Shown: one piece after another, positions 21,874 to 33,942 of the stretch
Layout of the letters: every line of letters starts with the position of its first letter
Numbering within the stretch: the stretch's first letter is position 1
Origin: an uncultured bacterium
Lineage (GTDB): Bacteria > Bacteroidota > Bacteroidia > Chitinophagales > CAIOSU01
DNA: 33,942 nucleotides
Reading direction: 5' to 3'
Assembly: GCA_903861055.1 (NCBI GenBank)
Contig: CAIOSU010000302.1
Span: forward strand, 1-33,942
The notes under the pieces: model-generated
Databases searched by the model: none
What the model saw: the letters and a program-made list of their open reading frames with translations, nothing else
What the model was told of the DNA's origin: nothing
Made by a program: the position numbers and the translations under genes

Positions 21874-22773
21874 TCACTTCTTGCTTCTTCTTTCGCCCTT
21901 CTTGTCTATTGGTTTTTCTACTTGCGGCAAACCGTTTAACGCGTCTTTGGCATTTAGTGCCGTTACCACCTTCTTGCCGGTTTTGGCCTCTAGTTCTTGC
22001 CTTGCCACCTTGGCTACATTTCCGCCTTGGGCAGCCACTTTCTTGCTTTCTTCAAAATCCTTCGGGCTTACTGCAACCGATATGTCTTTCGTAGATGCTT
22101 CTGCTAGCATATTCAAAATTAACTCGGTGTTAGTCATGTTGTCACGCAGGTTTTCCTTCTTTAAGCCCTTCAATACCTTATACTCTTTGGTGGTTTTGTC
22201 GCTCCATGCTTTGGTAATAATATCGGTAAGGGTGGCAAATTGAATACCCTCTTGTAGCCCTCGCTTTTTCCATTCGTCTGTCAGCTCTTTTCTAACCTCG
22301 ATGCTTTTAATCCGCTGGTTGATCCAGTTTTCGGAGTAGCCCAGTTGCAGGTATTGCTCTAAGGCCCTATCGATGCTTAGTTCGGGGTCTTGCAGTTCGT
22401 CTAACCTTTCGGAAGCTACACGAGCCAGCCAAAGTTTAAATGGCTCGGCCTTAGGAGAAGGTATGGATTGAATGAGGCGGAAAAGTTGCTCGGTATCGGC
22501 CACATCGGTTTTGTAGTATTTACCATCTGCCGATTGCATTTTCAGTTGACTACAATTTGTAGTCAACTGGCTACCTTCTCCTTTTAGCCTTGTTTTTAGT
22601 ACACTCCAATATTTTCTTGGATTGGGGCTATCTGTAAGCACCGCCACCACATCCACAATAGATATGTACCATTTTTCTTGCTCCGCATCCCAAAGGGTTC
22701 GCACTTGCTTTTCTTCGAACAACTTTATGGCGGTTATTTCCTTATTCACGATATGCTGTTTGTATAATTTCAA
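21874..22773 (-). CDS. Bro-N domain protein (prophage-antirepressor-like) with a DinD-like C-terminal half
   Basis: 299 aa. VRTLWDAEQEKWYISIVDVVAVLTDSPNPRKYW and IQSIPSPKAEPFKLWLA are the Bro-N-type core. KGLKKENLRDNMTNTELILNMLAE resembles E. coli DinD (KGLKKNQKILDHMGSTELAANLF). The start is not an ATG: it is TTG at 22773 or GTG at 22749. Confidence 0.8.
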   Translation of the reverse strand: MKLYKQHIVNKEITAIKLFEEKQVRTLWDAEQEKWYISIVDVVAVLTDSPNPRKYWSVLKTRLKGEGSQLTTNCSQLKMQSADGKYYKTDVADTEQLFRLIQSIPSPKAEPFKLWLARVASERLDELQDPELSIDRALEQYLQLGYSENWINQRIKSIEVRKELTDEWKKRGLQEGIQFATLTDIITKAWSDKTTKEYKVLKGLKKENLRDNMTNTELILNMLAEASTKDISVAVSPKDFEESKKVAAQGGNVAKVARQELEAKTGKKVVTALNAKDALNGLPQVEKPIDKKGERRSKK

Positions 22774-26819: not shown

Positions 26820-29156
<2,337 letters not shown>

Positions 29157-29175
29157 TGGCTACTTAGATGAACGG

Positions 29176-29212
29176 GAGCCGGCTGCGCAAGTAGCCGGCT
29201 CTTTTTGTTTTT
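29176..29212 (+). terminator. Rho-independent terminator after katG
   Basis: gagccggct / agccggctc forms a perfect 9-bp stem with an 8-nt loop, followed by tttttgttttt. Confidence 0.8.
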
Positions 29213-29600
29213 GGCAGAAGTATTGTAAGCGCCATATTCAGGCTCAGCAAGCCCACCCCTTACTCTGTCAGCACCTTGCCGTTGGCGGCGTTGGGCGTGC
29301 TATACACACCATGCTCCAGCGTGCTTTAGAACATTCTGGCGGTTCGGTTACAGTATAGCTCCTATTAATTGACCGCTCAAAGGGCCTTTTTCAAAGGCTT
29401 TTCATTGGATTATCCAATTCAGCATGTAAGTATATATGCTTATTGTTTGAATGTGGTTCGATTAATAACTTTACTGGTGATTTTAAAAAATAAATAATCT
29501 AATAATTAGTAGGTTTTAAGTTTTGTAAGGTGGGGTCTATAACCCAAATCGAAACATTGTACGGCTTCTGTTTTTATTAACAATCAATATTTTTTTAGCA

Positions 29601-30026
29601 ATGAAGAATCTTAGTTTAGTTTTTTTAGCTACAGTTTTTTTAGCAGGGGTGCTTCTTTCGGGATGCAAAAAAGACGACAAAAGCTTAATTGAAGGAACCT
29701 GGTTCCGAGTAAAGTTGGAGGAACGCACCGGTAATAATCAATGGCAAGTGAATTCGCAAAGCTGTAAGTTGGATGATGTAGAGGTTTATGAGAAAGGAGG
29801 AGGTTGGACATTTTATGCAGGCCCCAACCAGTGTAGCCCTGGAACAGGTGTAATAGCTGGTACATGGGAGCTTCGTGCTTCGGATACCAAAGTTGTTTTT
29901 ACTTATGATAATGCCGTGGGAGAGTATGAATCGACGGTAGAGGTACTTACTGAAGAAAGTCTTGTTTTAACTAATAGTGCTGGCGATTTAAGCAATACGC
30001 AATACAGATCTACTTACACTAAATAA
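29601..30026 (+). CDS. Lipocalin-like lipoprotein
   Basis: 141 aa. It has a signal peptide with lipobox LLSGC, and the EGTWFRV and AGTWELR motifs typical of the bacterial lipocalin-like domain. Confidence 0.65.
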   Translation: MKNLSLVFLATVFLAGVLLSGCKKDDKSLIEGTWFRVKLEERTGNNQWQVNSQSCKLDDVEVYEKGGGWTFYAGPNQCSPGTGVIAGTWELRASDTKVVFTYDNAVGEYESTVEVLTEESLVLTNSAGDLSNTQYRSTYTK

Positions 30027-30084
30027 CTTAAAAGCCGCCAAGCCGAAAACGGAATTTAAAGAGTAGGCAACCAACAACTAACCA

Positions 30085-30951
30085 ATGAAAAATTCTTCTG
30101 AAATCGTTAAAGCAAAGATGCCGTCAATCAACATAAACAATGTTGTTTTAGTGCTCATGTTGATTTGCTCCATGTTTTTGCTTCCAAGTTGCGATAAGTG
30201 CAAAGATGTAGATTGCAATAATGGTACTTGCAATGACGGCACTTGCGATTGTGATTATGGCTACTATGGCTCCTCTTGTCAATTAGGTAGCTCTTCTTCT
30301 GGAGGAAGCACCTCAAGCGGTAGCGGTTCGGGCAGTACTAGTTCTTCATCTGGCGGTGCTAACACTTGCACAACAAATGTTGCGGGTTGCGATCCAAGTC
30401 AATACTCTTGCGATGCAAGCGCTAGTTGTTATACTACCTATACTGCTTGTGCCAATTCAGGTACCTGTGCCTCATCAGGTGGCAGCGGCAGCGGCAGCAC
30501 AAGCTCTAGCTCTTCTACAGGTGGCTTTACTACTGCCTGTGCTACAAATGTTGCCGGTTGCGACCCAAGCCAATACTCATGCGATGCAAGCGCTAGTTGT
30601 TATGCTACTTATGCTGATTGTGTCAATTCTGGCACCTGTGCCTCATCGGGTGGTAGCAGCAGTAGCAGCACTAGCTCTAGCTCTTCTTCTGGCGGTTCAG
30701 CTGGGCAGGTTACGTTTTATACCACTCAAGATTTCAGTTGCGGTAATATTACCGTTAGCGTTAATGGCGGCAATGCGGTAATTGCCCAATTTTACACAAG
30801 CGGAGTGTCGGGCTGCGGCGCTAATGGTTGCGCAACTTTTACGCTTAATCCGGGACAGTATTCTTTCTCTGCTTCTTGCCCTTCACGCACTTGGGGACCA
30901 GGATCATTTACGGTTACCTCTGGTGGATGCCTGCTATACGAACTACAATAA
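30085..30951 (+). CDS. Cys-rich exported (probably lipo-)protein with an EGF-signature module, Ser/Gly linkers, two 57-aa six-Cys repeats and a C-terminal beta-rich domain
   Basis: 288 aa (277 aa if the start is ATG 30118) with 25 Cys. It has a lipobox-like LLPSC. CKDVDCNNGTCNDGTCDCDYGYYGSSC has the C-x-C-x2-G-Y-x4-C EGF-type spacing. The low-complexity S/G runs keep the frame open. Confidence 0.7.
   Translation: MKNSSEIVKAKMPSININNVVLVLMLICSMFLLPSCDKCKDVDCNNGTCNDGTCDCDYGYYGSSCQLGSSSSGGSTSSGSGSGSTSSSSGGANTCTTNVAGCDPSQYSCDASASCYTTYTACANSGTCASSGGSGSGSTSSSSSTGGFTTACATNVAGCDPSQYSCDASASCYATYADCVNSGTCASSGGSSSSSTSSSSSSGGSAGQVTFYTTQDFSCGNITVSVNGGNAVIAQFYTSGVSGCGANGCATFTLNPGQYSFSASCPSRTWGPGSFTVTSGGCLLYELQ
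30367..30708 (+). repeat. 171-nt (57-aa) tandem coding duplication (C[TA]TNVAGCDPSQYSCDASASCY.TY..C.NSGTCASSGG + S-rich linker)
   Basis: The copies start at 30367 and 30538. By eye the nucleotide identity is high over the Cys-module part. Confidence 0.8.
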
Positions 30952-30962
30952 ATCATTGAAGT

Positions 30963-32009
30963 TTGGATGAATCTATAAAAAACCGACCAGGCGTAACTGT
31001 TTCCGTTTGGTCGGTTTTAGCCGATGTATTGGCAATTGCAGGAGGATACTTTTTGTACACTCTTGCGCCTTATTTTAATCAACTGCTTTCAGAAAGGGTT
31101 GTTGATTTCCTTCCTTTGCTTGCTGGAAGTCTTTTTATCGGGTCAATAACAGTATGTATTTTTGAAATTTCATGCAAAAATGCATACATATCGGTAAGTT
31201 CTAAGGCCCTTTCCTATTTTTTTGAAAAACTACGGGGATTGTTCGCTAAGGAGCCATCTCTGGCAAACGTCCTTTCTAAAGACAATACTAACAAACACGC
31301 GTTCTTCATTTTATTGGTTAAGATTTTTTATGTTCCAATGATGCTCCAGTTCATGGTAAGCAACTTCTGGTTTCTGTATAACTATGTCTTACACATGAAC
31401 TATAGTTTGCCAGAGAACTTTATCTCGGTTTTTAATATCACTATTTATCCTTTTTTGATAGGGGCGTGCTTTTTTGTGGATACGGTGTTTTTCTTTTTTG
31501 GCTACTTAATCTACTCTGAGGCGTTAGGCAATACCATTAGATCCGTTGAAACAACTTTTTTAGGATGGGCGGTTGCATTACTCTGTTATCCTCCATTTAA
31601 TTACATTACCGCTAATTTTATTCCTGCGCTGTACCACGACCAACCTGACACGGGCAATCCTCTTCTTACCTTTACTTTGCGCATTACCATGTTTGCTTTG
31701 TTGCTTGTATACACGCTAGCCACCTTAAACTTAGGGTGGAAAAGCTCTAATTTAACCAACAGGGGCATTGTTTCTCACGGTGTATATGCCATTGTAAGGC
31801 ATCCGGCCTATATTGCTAAAAACTTGTTCTGGTGGCTTTCGCTGTTGCCTATTGTTGCAAACAAGCCTGAAGCACTTTTGTATATGGCCGCATGGTCGTT
31901 TCTGTATTTTTTAAGAGCCATTACCGAAGAAAGACATTTACGGCAAGACCCAGATTATGCTGCCTATTGCGGAAAGGTAAAGTATCGTTTTATCCCTAAA
32001 ATATATTAA
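30963..32009 (+). CDS. Polytopic membrane protein with a C-terminal ICMT/PEMT-type (isoprenylcysteine carboxyl / phospholipid) methyltransferase domain
   Basis: 348 aa. GVYAIVRHPAYIAKNLFWW ... ITEERHLRQDPDYAAYCGKVKYRFIP matches the RHPxY...EE..L....Y..Y...V...IP hallmark. The N-terminal ~190 aa is an extra multi-helix region. The only nearby in-frame start is TTG at 30963, so the start is uncertain. Confidence 0.7.
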   Translation: MDESIKNRPGVTVSVWSVLADVLAIAGGYFLYTLAPYFNQLLSERVVDFLPLLAGSLFIGSITVCIFEISCKNAYISVSSKALSYFFEKLRGLFAKEPSLANVLSKDNTNKHAFFILLVKIFYVPMMLQFMVSNFWFLYNYVLHMNYSLPENFISVFNITIYPFLIGACFFVDTVFFFFGYLIYSEALGNTIRSVETTFLGWAVALLCYPPFNYITANFIPALYHDQPDTGNPLLTFTLRITMFALLLVYTLATLNLGWKSSNLTNRGIVSHGVYAIVRHPAYIAKNLFWWLSLLPIVANKPEALLYMAAWSFLYFLRAITEERHLRQDPDYAAYCGKVKYRFIPKIY

Positions 32010-32015
32010 CAACGT

Positions 32016-32687
32016 ATGAGCTCGTCACAGTTTAAACTATTGCTCCTTTTACAAATTGTAACCTTGTTCCTGGTAGGTATGTTGTTTTTCAAACCGTCGG
32101 CAGTTTCCAATGTCGGAAAACCATTAAGCGGAATTCCGGTGAAGGGCATTGCTGGTAAAAATGTTGGAAAGGTAGCGTTTGGAGATAACTATGTTTTTGG
32201 TAGCCCTGAAGCCAAAAATGAGCTAGTTGTTTTTAGCAGATACAACTGCGGTTTCTGCCGCGACTTCTATAACGAGACTTTTGATAGCTTGAAAGTAAAA
32301 TATGTACTAACGGGCAAGTTGAAGATTGTTTTTATGGATAATGTAAACCCAACTGACCAGCAGGGCATGCTCATGGCGCAGGTTGCAGAGATTGGAAAGC
32401 AACTGGATTTATATGAGGCCATACAAACTCAATTGTACAAAGGCAATCAGCCAGAAGATTCTTTGGAAGTAATTGAAAGAGCGCTTTCGGTTGGAATGAA
32501 CGAACAACAATTAAAAGACCTACTCGGTAAAACTGAAACAACGGAAAGCGTTCTAAAAGATAACCTAGAAGTAGATCGCTTGCAGCTTACTGGTACGCCG
32601 TCATTTGTAATTAATGGCAATATAATTGTTGGGTTTAAAGGATATCAAGAGTTTATAACTCAAATGGAGCAGTTTATGGTTCAATAA
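32016..32687 (+). CDS. Membrane-anchored DsbA-like thiol:disulfide oxidoreductase (thioredoxin fold)
   Basis: 223 aa with an N-terminal anchor LLLLLQIVTLFLVGMLFF, the CxxC motif FSRYNCGFC, and a cis-Pro loop LTGTPSFVING. It lies 6 nt after the upstream gene. Confidence 0.75.
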   Translation: MSSSQFKLLLLLQIVTLFLVGMLFFKPSAVSNVGKPLSGIPVKGIAGKNVGKVAFGDNYVFGSPEAKNELVVFSRYNCGFCRDFYNETFDSLKVKYVLTGKLKIVFMDNVNPTDQQGMLMAQVAEIGKQLDLYEAIQTQLYKGNQPEDSLEVIERALSVGMNEQQLKDLLGKTETTESVLKDNLEVDRLQLTGTPSFVINGNIIVGFKGYQEFITQMEQFMVQ

Positions 32688-33195
32688 CTTCTAACTCCCT
32701 TCCCACATCTGCCGCAAGCACAATAACCCCGCACGGTAGCTTAATGGGGAGAATGCTCTTGGTGGGGTTGGCCTATTTGAAATCATTGACGACCATATGA
32801 CAGTTTTCTGTTGTTTGATGCCTGCAAAAAATGGTTGAAAAAAGGGATGTTAGCGATGGACGGACTCGTGAATCTTGCAGAAAAGGATCAATTCTGGTAC
32901 TCGGGTCGGGTAATGTTGTTTGTTGGTTAATTTAAGCTATTTAATTACGTTGGTAATGAAACTAGAACATGTTAATGAAAGGAGACCTTCAAGAACGGTT
33001 CTGTGAGAATACAGGGGTGAGATTCGTTTGTATGAACCGATTATGGGCAAGCTTAACAGAAAACATTCAGGAAACGTCCTGACAAGGCAAGTAATAGTTC
33101 TTCTTAACGGTTTTTTAATTAAACGACCAACAAGAGACAAAAGTGGAGGATAGCGATCATTCAAAAAAAATGAAACTTTTAAAACATAAAGTCAA

Positions 33196-33942
33196 TATGA
33201 AAAATAAGTTAATAAAAATCATTTTTATTGCAATACTTTCAATATTCGGCTGGAGCAATTCTTTAAAATCTCAAACGCTTGCTACGGGTGCTGGATTTTC
33301 ATTATATGTATGCGATAATGGGACAGTAAATTCTTGGGGTAGAGAATTTGAAGGTCAGTTGGGACGGCCATTTACCGATTATTGGAATCCTTATCCAAAT
33401 TCGATACCGGGTCTGTCAAATGTGTCGGCTGTTGCTGCAGGTTTAAACCATTCTTTAGCGCTTAAAGGGGATGGCACCGTATGGACTTGGGGAAAAGAAG
33501 ACGCCTGTTTTTTAACAAATAATGTAAAGCCAGGCCCTGTAGAGCCAGAACAGGCAATCGGATTAAGCAATATCATTGCAATTGCTGCGGGTGAAACACA
33601 CTCTCTGGCTTTAAAAAGTGATGGAACCGTTTGGGCTGCTGGACGGAACACTTTTGGTCAGCTCGGAAACGGAACCTTTGTCTCTAGTAATACTGCCGAG
33701 CAGGTAAATGGTCTAACGAATATAGTAAAAATTGATGCCGGACATGATCATAATATTGCATTAAAAAACGATGGAACGGTTTGGACTTGGGGCTGGAATG
33801 GGTTCGGTGGTCTGGGAAACGGCACTACCGCAAACCTCAATACTCCCATTCAAGTTATAGGACTTCAAAATGTGGTAGATATATCTGCTTCAAAGAAATG
33901 CTCTTATGCATTAAAAAACGATGGCACTGTATGGGAATGGGG
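33196..33942 (+). CDS. Secreted RCC1-repeat (beta-propeller) protein, 3' end outside the window, with an apparent +1 frame disruption near 33883-33907
   Basis: It is absent from the ORF track because it has no stop in the window. The ATG at 33196 gives a signal peptide (MKNKLIKIIFIAILSIFGW). RCC1 blades then recur: HSLALKGDGTVWTWG, HSLALKSDGTVWAAGRNTFGQLGNG, HNIALKNDGTVWTWGWNGFGGLGNG. The last blade (SYALKNDGTVWEWG) is only read in the +1 frame. Confidence 0.75.

Follow-up and report, generated by a model that had tools for sequence, protein, structure and literature searches.

A conserved gene pair of a Cys-rich predicted lipoprotein and an ICMT-like membrane methyltransferase in Bacteroidota, and the association of the same methyltransferase family with giant Cys-rich proteins in DPANN archaea

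Why should a polytopic membrane methyltransferase be encoded next to an exported, disulfide-rich protein? This question is raised by four open reading frames (ORFs) located between positions 29601 and 32687 of contig CAIOSU010000302.1 of an uncultured Chitinophagales bacterium (GCA_903861055.1), a stretch of 33,942 nucleotides that was analysed at its full length and is called here the window. ORF coordinates and translations were derived from the window sequence, and all positions follow the numbering of the whole window. The ORFs encode a lipocalin-like predicted lipoprotein (ORF1), a Cys-rich modular predicted lipoprotein (ORF2), a membrane methyltransferase of the ICMT superfamily (ORF3, hereafter MT) and a DsbA-type oxidoreductase (ORF4). 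The initial annotation of this DNA described them as a compact cassette and a candidate dedicated maturation system, and its layout of four ORFs on one strand (here plus), with gaps of 58, 11 and 6 nt, is borne out by ORF calling. We found that ORF3 represents a distinct and widespread ICMT-like family with a conserved, previously unnoticed class of partners, i.e., exported disulfide-rich surface proteins. The association of MT with Cys-rich surface proteins is solid and extends across domains.

The first line of evidence comes from a genome scan with one genome per species, which detected 532 MT loci. Gene neighbours were compared in the best 80 of these 532, which originate from Chitinophagales, Flavobacteriales, Candidate Phyla Radiation (CPR) bacteria, a few other bacterial metagenome-assembled genomes (MAGs) and, above all, DPANN archaea. 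In 13 of the 14 Bacteroidota loci, down to approximately 40% MT identity, the MT gene is directly preceded on the same strand by a gene for a lipoprotein with 10–25 Cys residues; the exception is L047, where the upstream gene is metallopeptidase-like. An upstream gene of L079 that was also recorded as Cys-rich turned out to be a false positive, a YgjP-like metallopeptidase that is not exported. The upstream lipoproteins follow a common plan, which includes a lipobox, acidic residues, at least one small disulfide-rich module, long Ser/Gly linkers and usually a shared C-terminal domain. Their small modules are EGF-like, of the CxNTCxYAxDGxCDDGG type or of the six-Cys type present in the window. 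In further lineages, fetched through protein identity, the gene order is lipocalin_4-cys-rich-MT-dsbA at 70% MT identity (L082–85) and cys-rich-MT-thioredoxin_4 at 61% and 49% MT identity (L092–96). Thus, the co-occurrence in related genomes that the initial annotation had anticipated was found.

The pair also duplicates and diverges as one. In the isolate Polluticoccus soli there are two paralogous MT genes 25 kb apart, each with its own lipoprotein gene upstream. These lipoproteins consist of an EGF-like module, a poly-Ser linker and a β-domain, and neither pair is accompanied by a DsbA gene. Each Polluticoccus paralogue pair groups with the corresponding Flavipsychrobacter pair, and the pairwise identities of MT and of the lipoprotein domain are correlated (Pearson 0.87). 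The Cys-rich lipoprotein and MT are retained together across ~40–95% MT identity while the flanking genes change. Based on the conserved order, paired duplication and co-divergence, the lipoprotein and MT genes are a core pair, inherited and duplicated as a unit. The arrangement of the ORFs in the window is likewise not a chance juxtaposition, since it recurs in relatives. The idea of a compact cassette stands in part: the locus is a conserved functional unit, but not a fixed set of four genes, as only the lipoprotein and MT are general to it. The presence of the pair in a cultured isolate, P. soli, makes it genetically testable.

ORF3 (positions 30963–32009, plus strand, TTG start) encodes a 348-aa polytopic protein belonging to a distinct ~340-aa branch of the ICMT superfamily. 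Its C-terminal part (aa 238–348, positions 31674–32006, plus strand) corresponds to an ICMT-type cofactor-binding module with the motifs SNLTNRGI, RHPAY (aa 279–283), TEERHL (aa 321–326) and a C-terminal Y..YC.KV.YRFIP, so the hallmark of ICMT/PEMT enzymes reported earlier for this ORF is indeed present. Three Pfam families score above their gathering values: ICMT (PF04140, 28.0 vs. 24), DUF1295 (PF06966, 26.7 vs. 20.4) and PEMT (PF04191, 25.4 vs. 25). This agrees with the superfamily placement proposed before, although the matches are limited to residues 238–336 and their scores do not discriminate between ICMT, DUF1295 and PEMT. For the first ~230 residues neither Pfam nor NCBIfam returned a match. 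This N-terminal membrane region (aa 1–232, positions 30963–31658, plus strand) is specific to the family and contains invariant columns in the family alignment; used alone as a protein query it gave no return, probably owing to a word-index limit. Homologues of the whole protein are numerous (1637 at E ≤ 1e-3), mostly 300–380 aa long, and the closer ones align end to end. Bacterial and archaeal members are 45–50% identical, and 47 positions are invariant across 29 diverse members from both domains. These comprise, in the N-terminal region, K120, P125, M127, N134, FGY179–181, N190, SV194–195, GW201–202 and CYPP208–211, as well as SNLTNRGI, RHPAY and TEERHL. The invariance of the S-adenosylmethionine (SAM)-type motifs argues for an active methyltransferase.

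The K/R-rich segments of MT (68–113 and 260–348), read by the positive-inside rule, together with the helix pattern of the AlphaFold2 (AF2) model and the homology to ICMT, point to an N-in/C-in protein with eight membrane passes and a cofactor module that would face the cytoplasm. The cofactor module of ICMT has the same cytoplasmic orientation. In this predicted topology the invariant residues fall in the membrane core and the cytoplasmic loops, and the outer loops are not conserved. Only two Cys residues are invariant in the family: C208 lies inside a membrane helix, whereas C336 belongs to the tail on the cytoplasmic side.

How close is this enzyme to the systems already described? With ICMT/Ste14 (PF04140; 4A2N, 5V7P) ORF3 shares a polytopic architecture, a C-terminal cofactor module of ~110 residues (G.Y..RHP.Y ... 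EE..L ... Y..Y...V....P) and a predicted 8-pass N-in/C-in topology resembling that of eukaryotic ICMT. By sequence, it aligns to residues 115–187 of Ma-ICMT (4a2n, E 2e-8), including RHPAY and EE..L. In contrast to ICMT, its first ~230 residues carry motifs of their own (KxxxxPxM, FGY, N..SV, GW, CYPP), and it is paired with an exported lipoprotein; none of the neighbourhoods contained a CaaX substrate, a prenyltransferase or a CaaX protease. The score against the isoprenylcysteine methyltransferase equivalog of NCBIfam (NF040696) is 43.1 bits, far below its cut-off of 160. Judged by sequence, ORF3 is a member of the ICMT/PEMT/DUF1295 superfamily but not an orthologue of ICMT, because of this score, the lack of nearby CaaX machinery and the unique N-terminal half. 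Methylation of prenyl-Cys of the CaaX type was rejected on similar grounds: none of the window products ends in a CaaX box, in line with the caveat of the initial annotation, and neither a prenyltransferase nor a CaaX (CPBP) protease was detected among 150 MT neighbours, in a search that covered neighbourhoods and not whole genomes.

The AF2 model of ORF3 (pLDDT 85.8) gave as its top three Foldseek matches AtTAM46 (8xku_G), ICMT (5v7p_A) and a sterol reductase (4quv_B), with probabilities of 0.98–1.0 and global TM-scores of only 0.27–0.37, which limits the similarity to a portion of the protein. AtTAM46 (At5g59500; 8XKU chain G, chloroplast Ycf2-FtsHi import motor) is the best structural match and also the second-best sequence match in the PDB (profile positions 241–342), and like ORF3 it terminates in KV+..FIP.VY. 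This ICMT-like membrane protein, whose substrate and function are not known, is physically associated with a protein-translocation machine (PMC13533914). Unlike ORF3, AtTAM46 is a eukaryotic plastid protein with no known Cys-rich partner, and only the C-terminal module is comparable (global TM-score ~0.3); the sequence alignments of ORF3 to both Ma-ICMT and TAM46 cover just the last ~100 residues. The initial annotation could place the combination of genes in no characterised system, and neither could we: no literature was found in which ICMT-like proteins are connected to Cys-rich surface proteins, to DsbA or to the giant proteins of DPANN archaea. A role as a defence system was discarded, as none of the four proteins has a PADLOC match.

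Short canonical ICMT/PEMT-type proteins (150–220 aa, with RHPMY/RHPLY and EE) adjoin the long MT in L026 (3509–4174), L046 (9065–9523) and L048 (2402–2866), and an SAM synthetase gene adjoins it in L032.

The partner, ORF2 (positions 30085–30951, plus strand), is a 288-aa modular predicted lipoprotein. All the features previously attributed to this product were found: 25 Cys, the lipobox-like LLPSC, an EGF-type string and two six-Cys repeats. Its Cys residues are located at position 28 in the signal peptide, at position 36 in the lipobox, in three groups of six (residues 39–65, 95–128 and 152–185) and, in the C-terminal domain, at residues 219, 244, 249, 265 and 282. The lipobox LLPSC (aa 32–36, positions 30178–30192, plus strand), like LLSGC of ORF1, comes after a hydrophobic N-terminal segment, and its Pro at -2 is atypical. 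Cys36 is followed by an acidic stretch, DKCKD, which we take to resemble the surface-export signal of Bacteroidota. The pattern of a lipobox and acidic residues recurs in all ORF2 orthologues, and ORF2 is probably displayed on the cell surface. The first module (aa 39–65, positions 30199–30279, plus strand) is EGF-like, with six Cys residues in a C-x-C-x2-G-aromatic pattern and the EGF-type string CDCDYGYYGSSC at aa 54–65. Its EGF_Teneurin score of 16.8 bits (E 0.007) lies below the cut-off of 24.3; a weak EGF_TEN match is also on record for the L090 orthologue. Among 1050 ORFs of the loci, the signature C.C..G[FYW]..C occurs in five, and all five are the gene immediately upstream of MT. Next, a 171-nt tandem duplication (positions 30373–30687, plus strand; 1.8 copies, 88% matches) gives rise to the two six-Cys repeats with their Ser/Gly linkers.

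The C-terminal domain of ORF2 (aa 205–288, positions 30697–30948, plus strand; 5 Cys) is a predicted seven-strand β-sandwich of the prealbumin/carboxypeptidase-regulatory-like type (AF2 model pLDDT 93.9). Foldseek relates it to small β-sandwich accessory domains of carboxypeptidase-regulatory and carbohydrate-binding-like character (6hif_Y, rhamnogalacturonan lyase, carboxypeptidase D/N/M, DUF3823 and CBM20). The domain is widespread, with 632 cluster representatives that contain one to six copies per protein and mostly have a lipobox-like N-terminus. In the MT-linked β-domains an extra Cys within CGxxGC makes the Cys count odd (5 or 3), and a Cys is conserved 7–8 residues before the C-terminus of the lipoproteins. 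A small PAS/GerE (LuxR-type) or response-regulator/GerE gene repeatedly lies near lipoproteins with this β-sandwich, and also near one of the two MT pairs of Polluticoccus; the places concerned are L086 (128–793), L087 (1226–1987, 5741–6505), L088 (115–873) and L091 (6523–7209). Such a gene may serve specifically to regulate these lipoproteins.

ORF2 is, by its codon pattern, a real coding gene under purifying selection, because synonymous differences from the L002 orthologue outnumber non-synonymous ones (132 vs. 67 codons, with 72 codons identical) and because its frame is the only stop-free frame in three genomes. The public (JGI) gene call at this place contains only a 48-aa C-terminal fragment of ORF2 (P0121). 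An Ala/Leu-rich ORF of 141 aa in an alternative frame (30356–30781) overlaps the Ser/Gly-coding repeats and may mislead gene callers. A protein search with the C-terminal domain of ORF2 returned only the window's 48-aa fragment, probably again due to a word-index limit, and the near-identical L001 orthologue was not returned. Protein databases probably contain fewer of these Cys-rich, poly-Ser lipoproteins than genomes encode. Partner genes can be missed or truncated by gene callers, and therefore the association with MT may be invisible there.

Is the association restricted to Bacteroidota? We found that ten DPANN loci encode, at +1 to +4 from MT, homologous giant proteins of 1300–2050 aa with as many as 94–166 Cys residues. 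They begin with a signal peptide or an N-terminal transmembrane (TM) segment, contain repeats rich in C..W and a Ser/Gly stalk, and are anchored by a C-terminal TM segment. The giant gene lies within 2 kb of MT in nine of the ten cases, although the flanks extend for ~8 kb to either side; MT identities between these loci are only 45–69%, and the genes on the opposite side of MT differ. Similar to ORF2, the giants are exported, extremely Cys-rich, placed on Ser/Gly stalks and adjacent to the same MT family; unlike ORF2, which would be held by a lipid at its N-terminus, they are anchored through a TM segment at the C-terminus. They show no Pfam match and no detectable homology to ORF2. A homologous module common to both was searched for with Pfam and the EGF signature, the latter being absent from the giants, and none was found. 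From their sequences, ORF2 and the giants thus appear alike in nature only, as exported disulfide-rich proteins on Ser/Gly stalks. Considering all the compared loci, and taking as Cys-rich a gene product with 10 or more Cys and a Cys content of 3.5% or more, such genes represent 13% of genes at ±1 from MT, 7% at ±2 and ~2–3% further out, beyond position 5; these values form a consistent trend and not a calibrated probability.

As for the remaining neighbours, Pfam families present in at least three of the 150 ±2 neighbours of MT were uracil-DNA glycosylase (4), DsbA/Thioredoxin_4 (4), type III restriction helicase (3) and the short ICMT/PEMT paralogues (3), and the other ±2 neighbours are mostly housekeeping genes. 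In DPANN loci they include uracil-DNA glycosylase, endonuclease dU, a PHP-domain nuclease, nucleoside diphosphate kinase (NDK), RadA and eIF2-alpha. Genes for the removal of uracil or deaminated bases flank MT in L005, L019, L021–L024, L028, L050, L052 and L063. The synteny of uracil-DNA glycosylase, endonuclease dU and a PHP-domain protein of ~410 aa with MT appears to be conserved in DPANN loci, with no obvious functional link.

In the window, the pair is followed by ORF4 (positions 32016–32687, plus strand), a 223-aa protein with an N-terminal hydrophobic anchor. The earlier description of an anchored CGFC protein of DsbA type with a cis-Pro loop agrees with its Pfam matches (Thioredoxin_4, 70 bits, E 3e-19; DSBA, 35.6 bits, E 1e-8). 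The CGFC motif occupies aa 78–81 (32247–32258, plus strand) and the GTPSF cis-Pro loop aa 193–197 (32592–32606, plus strand). Sequence matches in the PDB include actinobacterial DsbA, Wolbachia DsbA1 and B. subtilis BdbD, and by these criteria the product is a predicted DsbA/BdbD-type thiol:disulfide oxidoreductase. A DsbA gene immediately follows MT in L001, L002, L003, L082–85 and L092–96. It is convergent with MT in L077, and in the archaeal L015 a DsbA-like gene is positioned between MT and the giant Cys-rich gene. The DsbA gene after MT is hence an accessory restricted to the clade of the window (at least 49% MT identity), with two scattered cases outside it. Since a membrane-anchored CxxC oxidase is encoded 6 nt after MT, beside a protein needing up to 11 disulfides, ORF4 would most simply be the folding catalyst of ORF2, and this is the least speculative mechanistic step.

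What could a methyltransferase contribute to such a pair? We propose, tentatively and with slightly less than even confidence, that MT acts on a membrane-embedded acceptor, such as a lipid or a lipid-linked molecule, and that the Cys-rich surface proteins and their display are linked in function to the methylated acceptor. ORF2 would be exported by Sec, lipidated at Cys36 and shown on the cell surface, with its EGF-like, two six-Cys and β-sandwich modules spaced by Ser/Gly linkers; in the clade of the window, up to 11 disulfides would be introduced into it by the co-encoded membrane-anchored ORF4. ORF3, as a putative SAM-dependent methyltransferase of the 8-TM ICMT branch with its termini and cofactor site facing the cytoplasm, would methylate the acceptor at the inner face of the membrane, and not the folded lipoprotein. 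Candidates for the presumed acceptor are the head group of a lipid, a carrier or intermediate linked to an isoprenoid, and a small compound that is hydrophobic or a thiol. The product would be required for the Cys-rich surface protein, serve as its ligand or give protection from it. The predicted cytoplasmic position of the cofactor site makes direct methylation of a folded exported protein unlikely. A non-protein acceptor is favoured also because the lipid-anchored bacterial proteins and the TM-anchored giants share no cytoplasm-exposed feature. The dedicated maturation system of the initial annotation is therefore retained with regard to DsbA, a plausible disulfide catalyst, but processing of the Cys-rich protein by MT is topologically awkward.

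The proposal has precedents at the level of the superfamily. PEMT (PF04191) and MddA, the latter of which we take to be an ICMT-family enzyme, have the same superfamily fold as ORF3 and act at the membrane, where their methyl acceptors are head groups of lipids or small thiols. S-methylation of small thiols is the reaction of MddA (PMC11445057). In the cinnamycin system, to which ORF2/ORF3 can be likened, immunity couples methylation of the producer's lipid to a secreted, cross-linked, Cys-rich peptide that binds lipid (PMC5408092). However, the cinnamycin methyltransferase and MddA are not orthologues of the ORF3 family, and no lipid product is known for ORF3.

Several facts weigh against the proposal of a membrane-embedded acceptor. 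No acceptor was identified, and the topology on which the argument leans is predicted. Beside MT we found no recurrent genes for lipid synthesis, prenyl transfer or glycosylation, except for scattered glycosyltransferase family 2 (GT2) and epimerase genes. No Cys-rich gene occurs within three genes of MT in 54 of the 80 loci, so the enzyme needs no adjacent partner, and the giants are mostly convergent with MT and hence not co-transcribed with it. The loci are phylogenetically non-independent, by which the proximity statistics are inflated. Finally, the β-sandwich does not qualify as a recognition domain or tag specific to MT, as many lipoproteins that carry it are not MT-linked; for instance, three multi-repeat lipoproteins with this domain adjoin PAS/GerE (LuxR-type) regulators, not MT.

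Against the proposed membrane-embedded acceptor other explanations have to be set. MT might methylate the Cys-rich protein itself, at a carboxylate or a thiol, before or during export, with folding by DsbA afterwards. The tight operon, with 11 nt between ORF2 and ORF3, and the co-divergence and joint duplication of the pair are consistent with such direct maturation; the odd Cys count of the MT-linked β-domains (CGxxGC) could leave a free thiol, a Cys is conserved near the C-terminus of the lipoproteins, and TAM46, the nearest structural relative, sits in a protein-translocation motor (PMC13533914). Nevertheless, we regard it as unlikely, as the predicted cytoplasmic cofactor site would be separated from a substrate that is extracytoplasmic after Sec export. 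A CaaX box is also missing, as are neighbouring genes for a prenyltransferase or a CaaX protease, the outer loops of MT are not conserved, and the N-terminal lipid anchor of the Bacteroidota proteins and the C-terminal TM anchor of the giants leave no common feature exposed to the cytoplasm. It is still less probable that MT serves self-protection, a special case of a lipid acceptor, whereby the surface proteins would bind a membrane lipid of prey or host and MT would methylate the lipid of the producer, as cinnamycin producers do with phosphatidylethanolamine (PMC5408092). The main concentration of the family is in lineages with an episymbiotic or predatory way of life (DPANN, CPR, Omnitrophota and Bdellovibrionales MAGs), and the Cys-rich modules are shuffled between lineages while MT, duplicated together with its partner, is conserved. 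Yet, no toxin or lytic domain was detected in ORF2 or the giants, PADLOC gave no match, and lipid binding by the Cys-rich proteins is pure conjecture.

In turn, the position of ORF3 beside a DsbA-type gene recalls bdbDC of Bacillus and the DsbA-VKOR pairs of actinobacteria and cyanobacteria, where an oxidase of the DsbA/BdbD type is encoded beside a polytopic membrane protein and near a likely substrate. DsbB and VKOR are quinone-binding proteins with 4–5 TM segments and two extracytoplasmic Cys pairs, one of them CxxC. One could thus imagine that ORF3, which occupies the place of bdbC or VKOR in other operons, replaces them in re-oxidising DsbA, or makes or methylates a quinone for this purpose. 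The DsbA gene 6 nt downstream of MT in the window's clade, the DsbA-like gene between MT and the giant in L015 and the recurrence of Thioredoxin_4 among MT neighbours would fit. We consider this highly improbable, and ORF3 was rejected as a DsbB/VKOR analogue: the only invariant Cys residues are C208 and C336, with no CxxC and no conserved pair in the outer loops, whereas DsbB and VKOR are defined by two periplasmic Cys pairs. The SAM-type motifs, in contrast, are invariant, and most members of the family lack an adjacent DsbA. Moreover, DPANN and CPR organisms are, to our knowledge, generally without quinone synthesis. It could also be that no mechanistic link exists and that MT is an unrelated housekeeping enzyme of membrane lipids, co-located or co-regulated with envelope genes. 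Most archaeal and CPR loci do set MT among housekeeping genes (uracil-DNA glycosylase, NDK, RadA, eIF2 alpha), and the many loci without a Cys-rich neighbour point the same way. We judge this to be about as improbable as self-protection, since the pair is kept over ~40–95% MT identity while its flanks change, is duplicated as a unit and co-diverges, and since the association is independently enriched in archaea.

A broader reading is that the ~340-aa ICMT-like proteins are devoted, in bacteria and archaea alike, to the biogenesis of disulfide-rich surface adhesins, acting through an undescribed methylation of the exported protein or of a lipid or carrier. This we find doubtful. If true, either an exported protein would be methylated during translocation, or a lipid or carrier would be needed for anchoring, display or self-tolerance, and one enzyme would be essential both to the giants of episymbiotic archaea and to the small EGF-like lipoproteins of Chitinophagales. 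What is understood of ICMT-type enzymes concerns almost exclusively the last step of the eukaryotic CaaX pathway, and many prokaryotic homologues have no known substrates. The pairing of lipoprotein and MT suggests an unstudied step in the making of Cys-rich surface proteins and provides a handle on two questions, namely the role of the ICMT-like proteins of bacteria and archaea and the manner in which the DPANN giants and their small bacterial counterparts are made and displayed.

With respect to the setting of the unit in the window, its left boundary is an intrinsic terminator (29174–29212, plus strand) located directly 3' of katG (26820–29156). It consists of a 13-bp stem with 8 GC pairs (29174–29203), a loop of 4 and a T run, which confirms the strong terminator that had been suggested to isolate the unit from katG. 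A non-coding stretch of 390 nt separates it from ORF1. No plus-strand terminator of comparable strength was found between the four ORFs, and the unit is presumably co-transcribed; a promoter of the Bacteroidota type (TTTG ... TAnnTTTG) had no match in 29200–30100.

ORF1 (29601–30026, plus strand) is an accessory gene for a 141-aa lipocalin-like predicted lipoprotein with the lipobox LLSGC at aa 18–22 and a weak Lipocalin_8 match in Pfam (E 0.13). Among the 80 genome loci a homologue is present only in L001, a MAG contig labelled Chitinophaga pinensis, and the orthologous position in L082–L084 is taken by a Lipocalin_4 protein (PF13648); the gene is confined to the nearest relatives. In the 58-nt spacer between ORF1 and ORF2, Rfam reports the cis-regulatory RNA DUF805b over its full model length (30033–30069, plus strand; E 6e-4) with 24.9 bits, below the gathering score of 35.6. 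The spacer is conserved in L001 but not in L082–84, where the match does not recur, and we dismissed it as probably due to chance.

From position 22627 to exactly 32687, the stop codon of ORF4, the window is collinear with L001 at ~94% DNA identity. The collinearity ends precisely at the stop codon of the DsbA gene (window positions 32688–33942 lie beyond it), and therefore a strain-level rearrangement borders the unit. Downstream of ORF4, a non-coding stretch of 480 nt is followed by a gene for a secreted RCC1-repeat (WD40_RLD) protein, which is cut off by the end of the window. The KatG ORF itself has a signal-peptide-like N-terminal extension, and a stretch rich in Pro, Ser and Thr leads from it to the peroxidase domain, whose Pfam match starts at residue 131; this suggests that KatG of the window is exported. 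The remaining window genes serve ordinary metabolism and repair and encode KduI, a PfkB kinase, KDPG aldolase, an MFS transporter, RecR, a thioesterase and a glutamine amidotransferase-domain protein. A 299-aa protein with a BRO-N domain, which is usually associated with phage or mobile elements, is encoded at 21877–22773 (minus strand), with genes for sugar-acid utilisation on one side and recR on the other.

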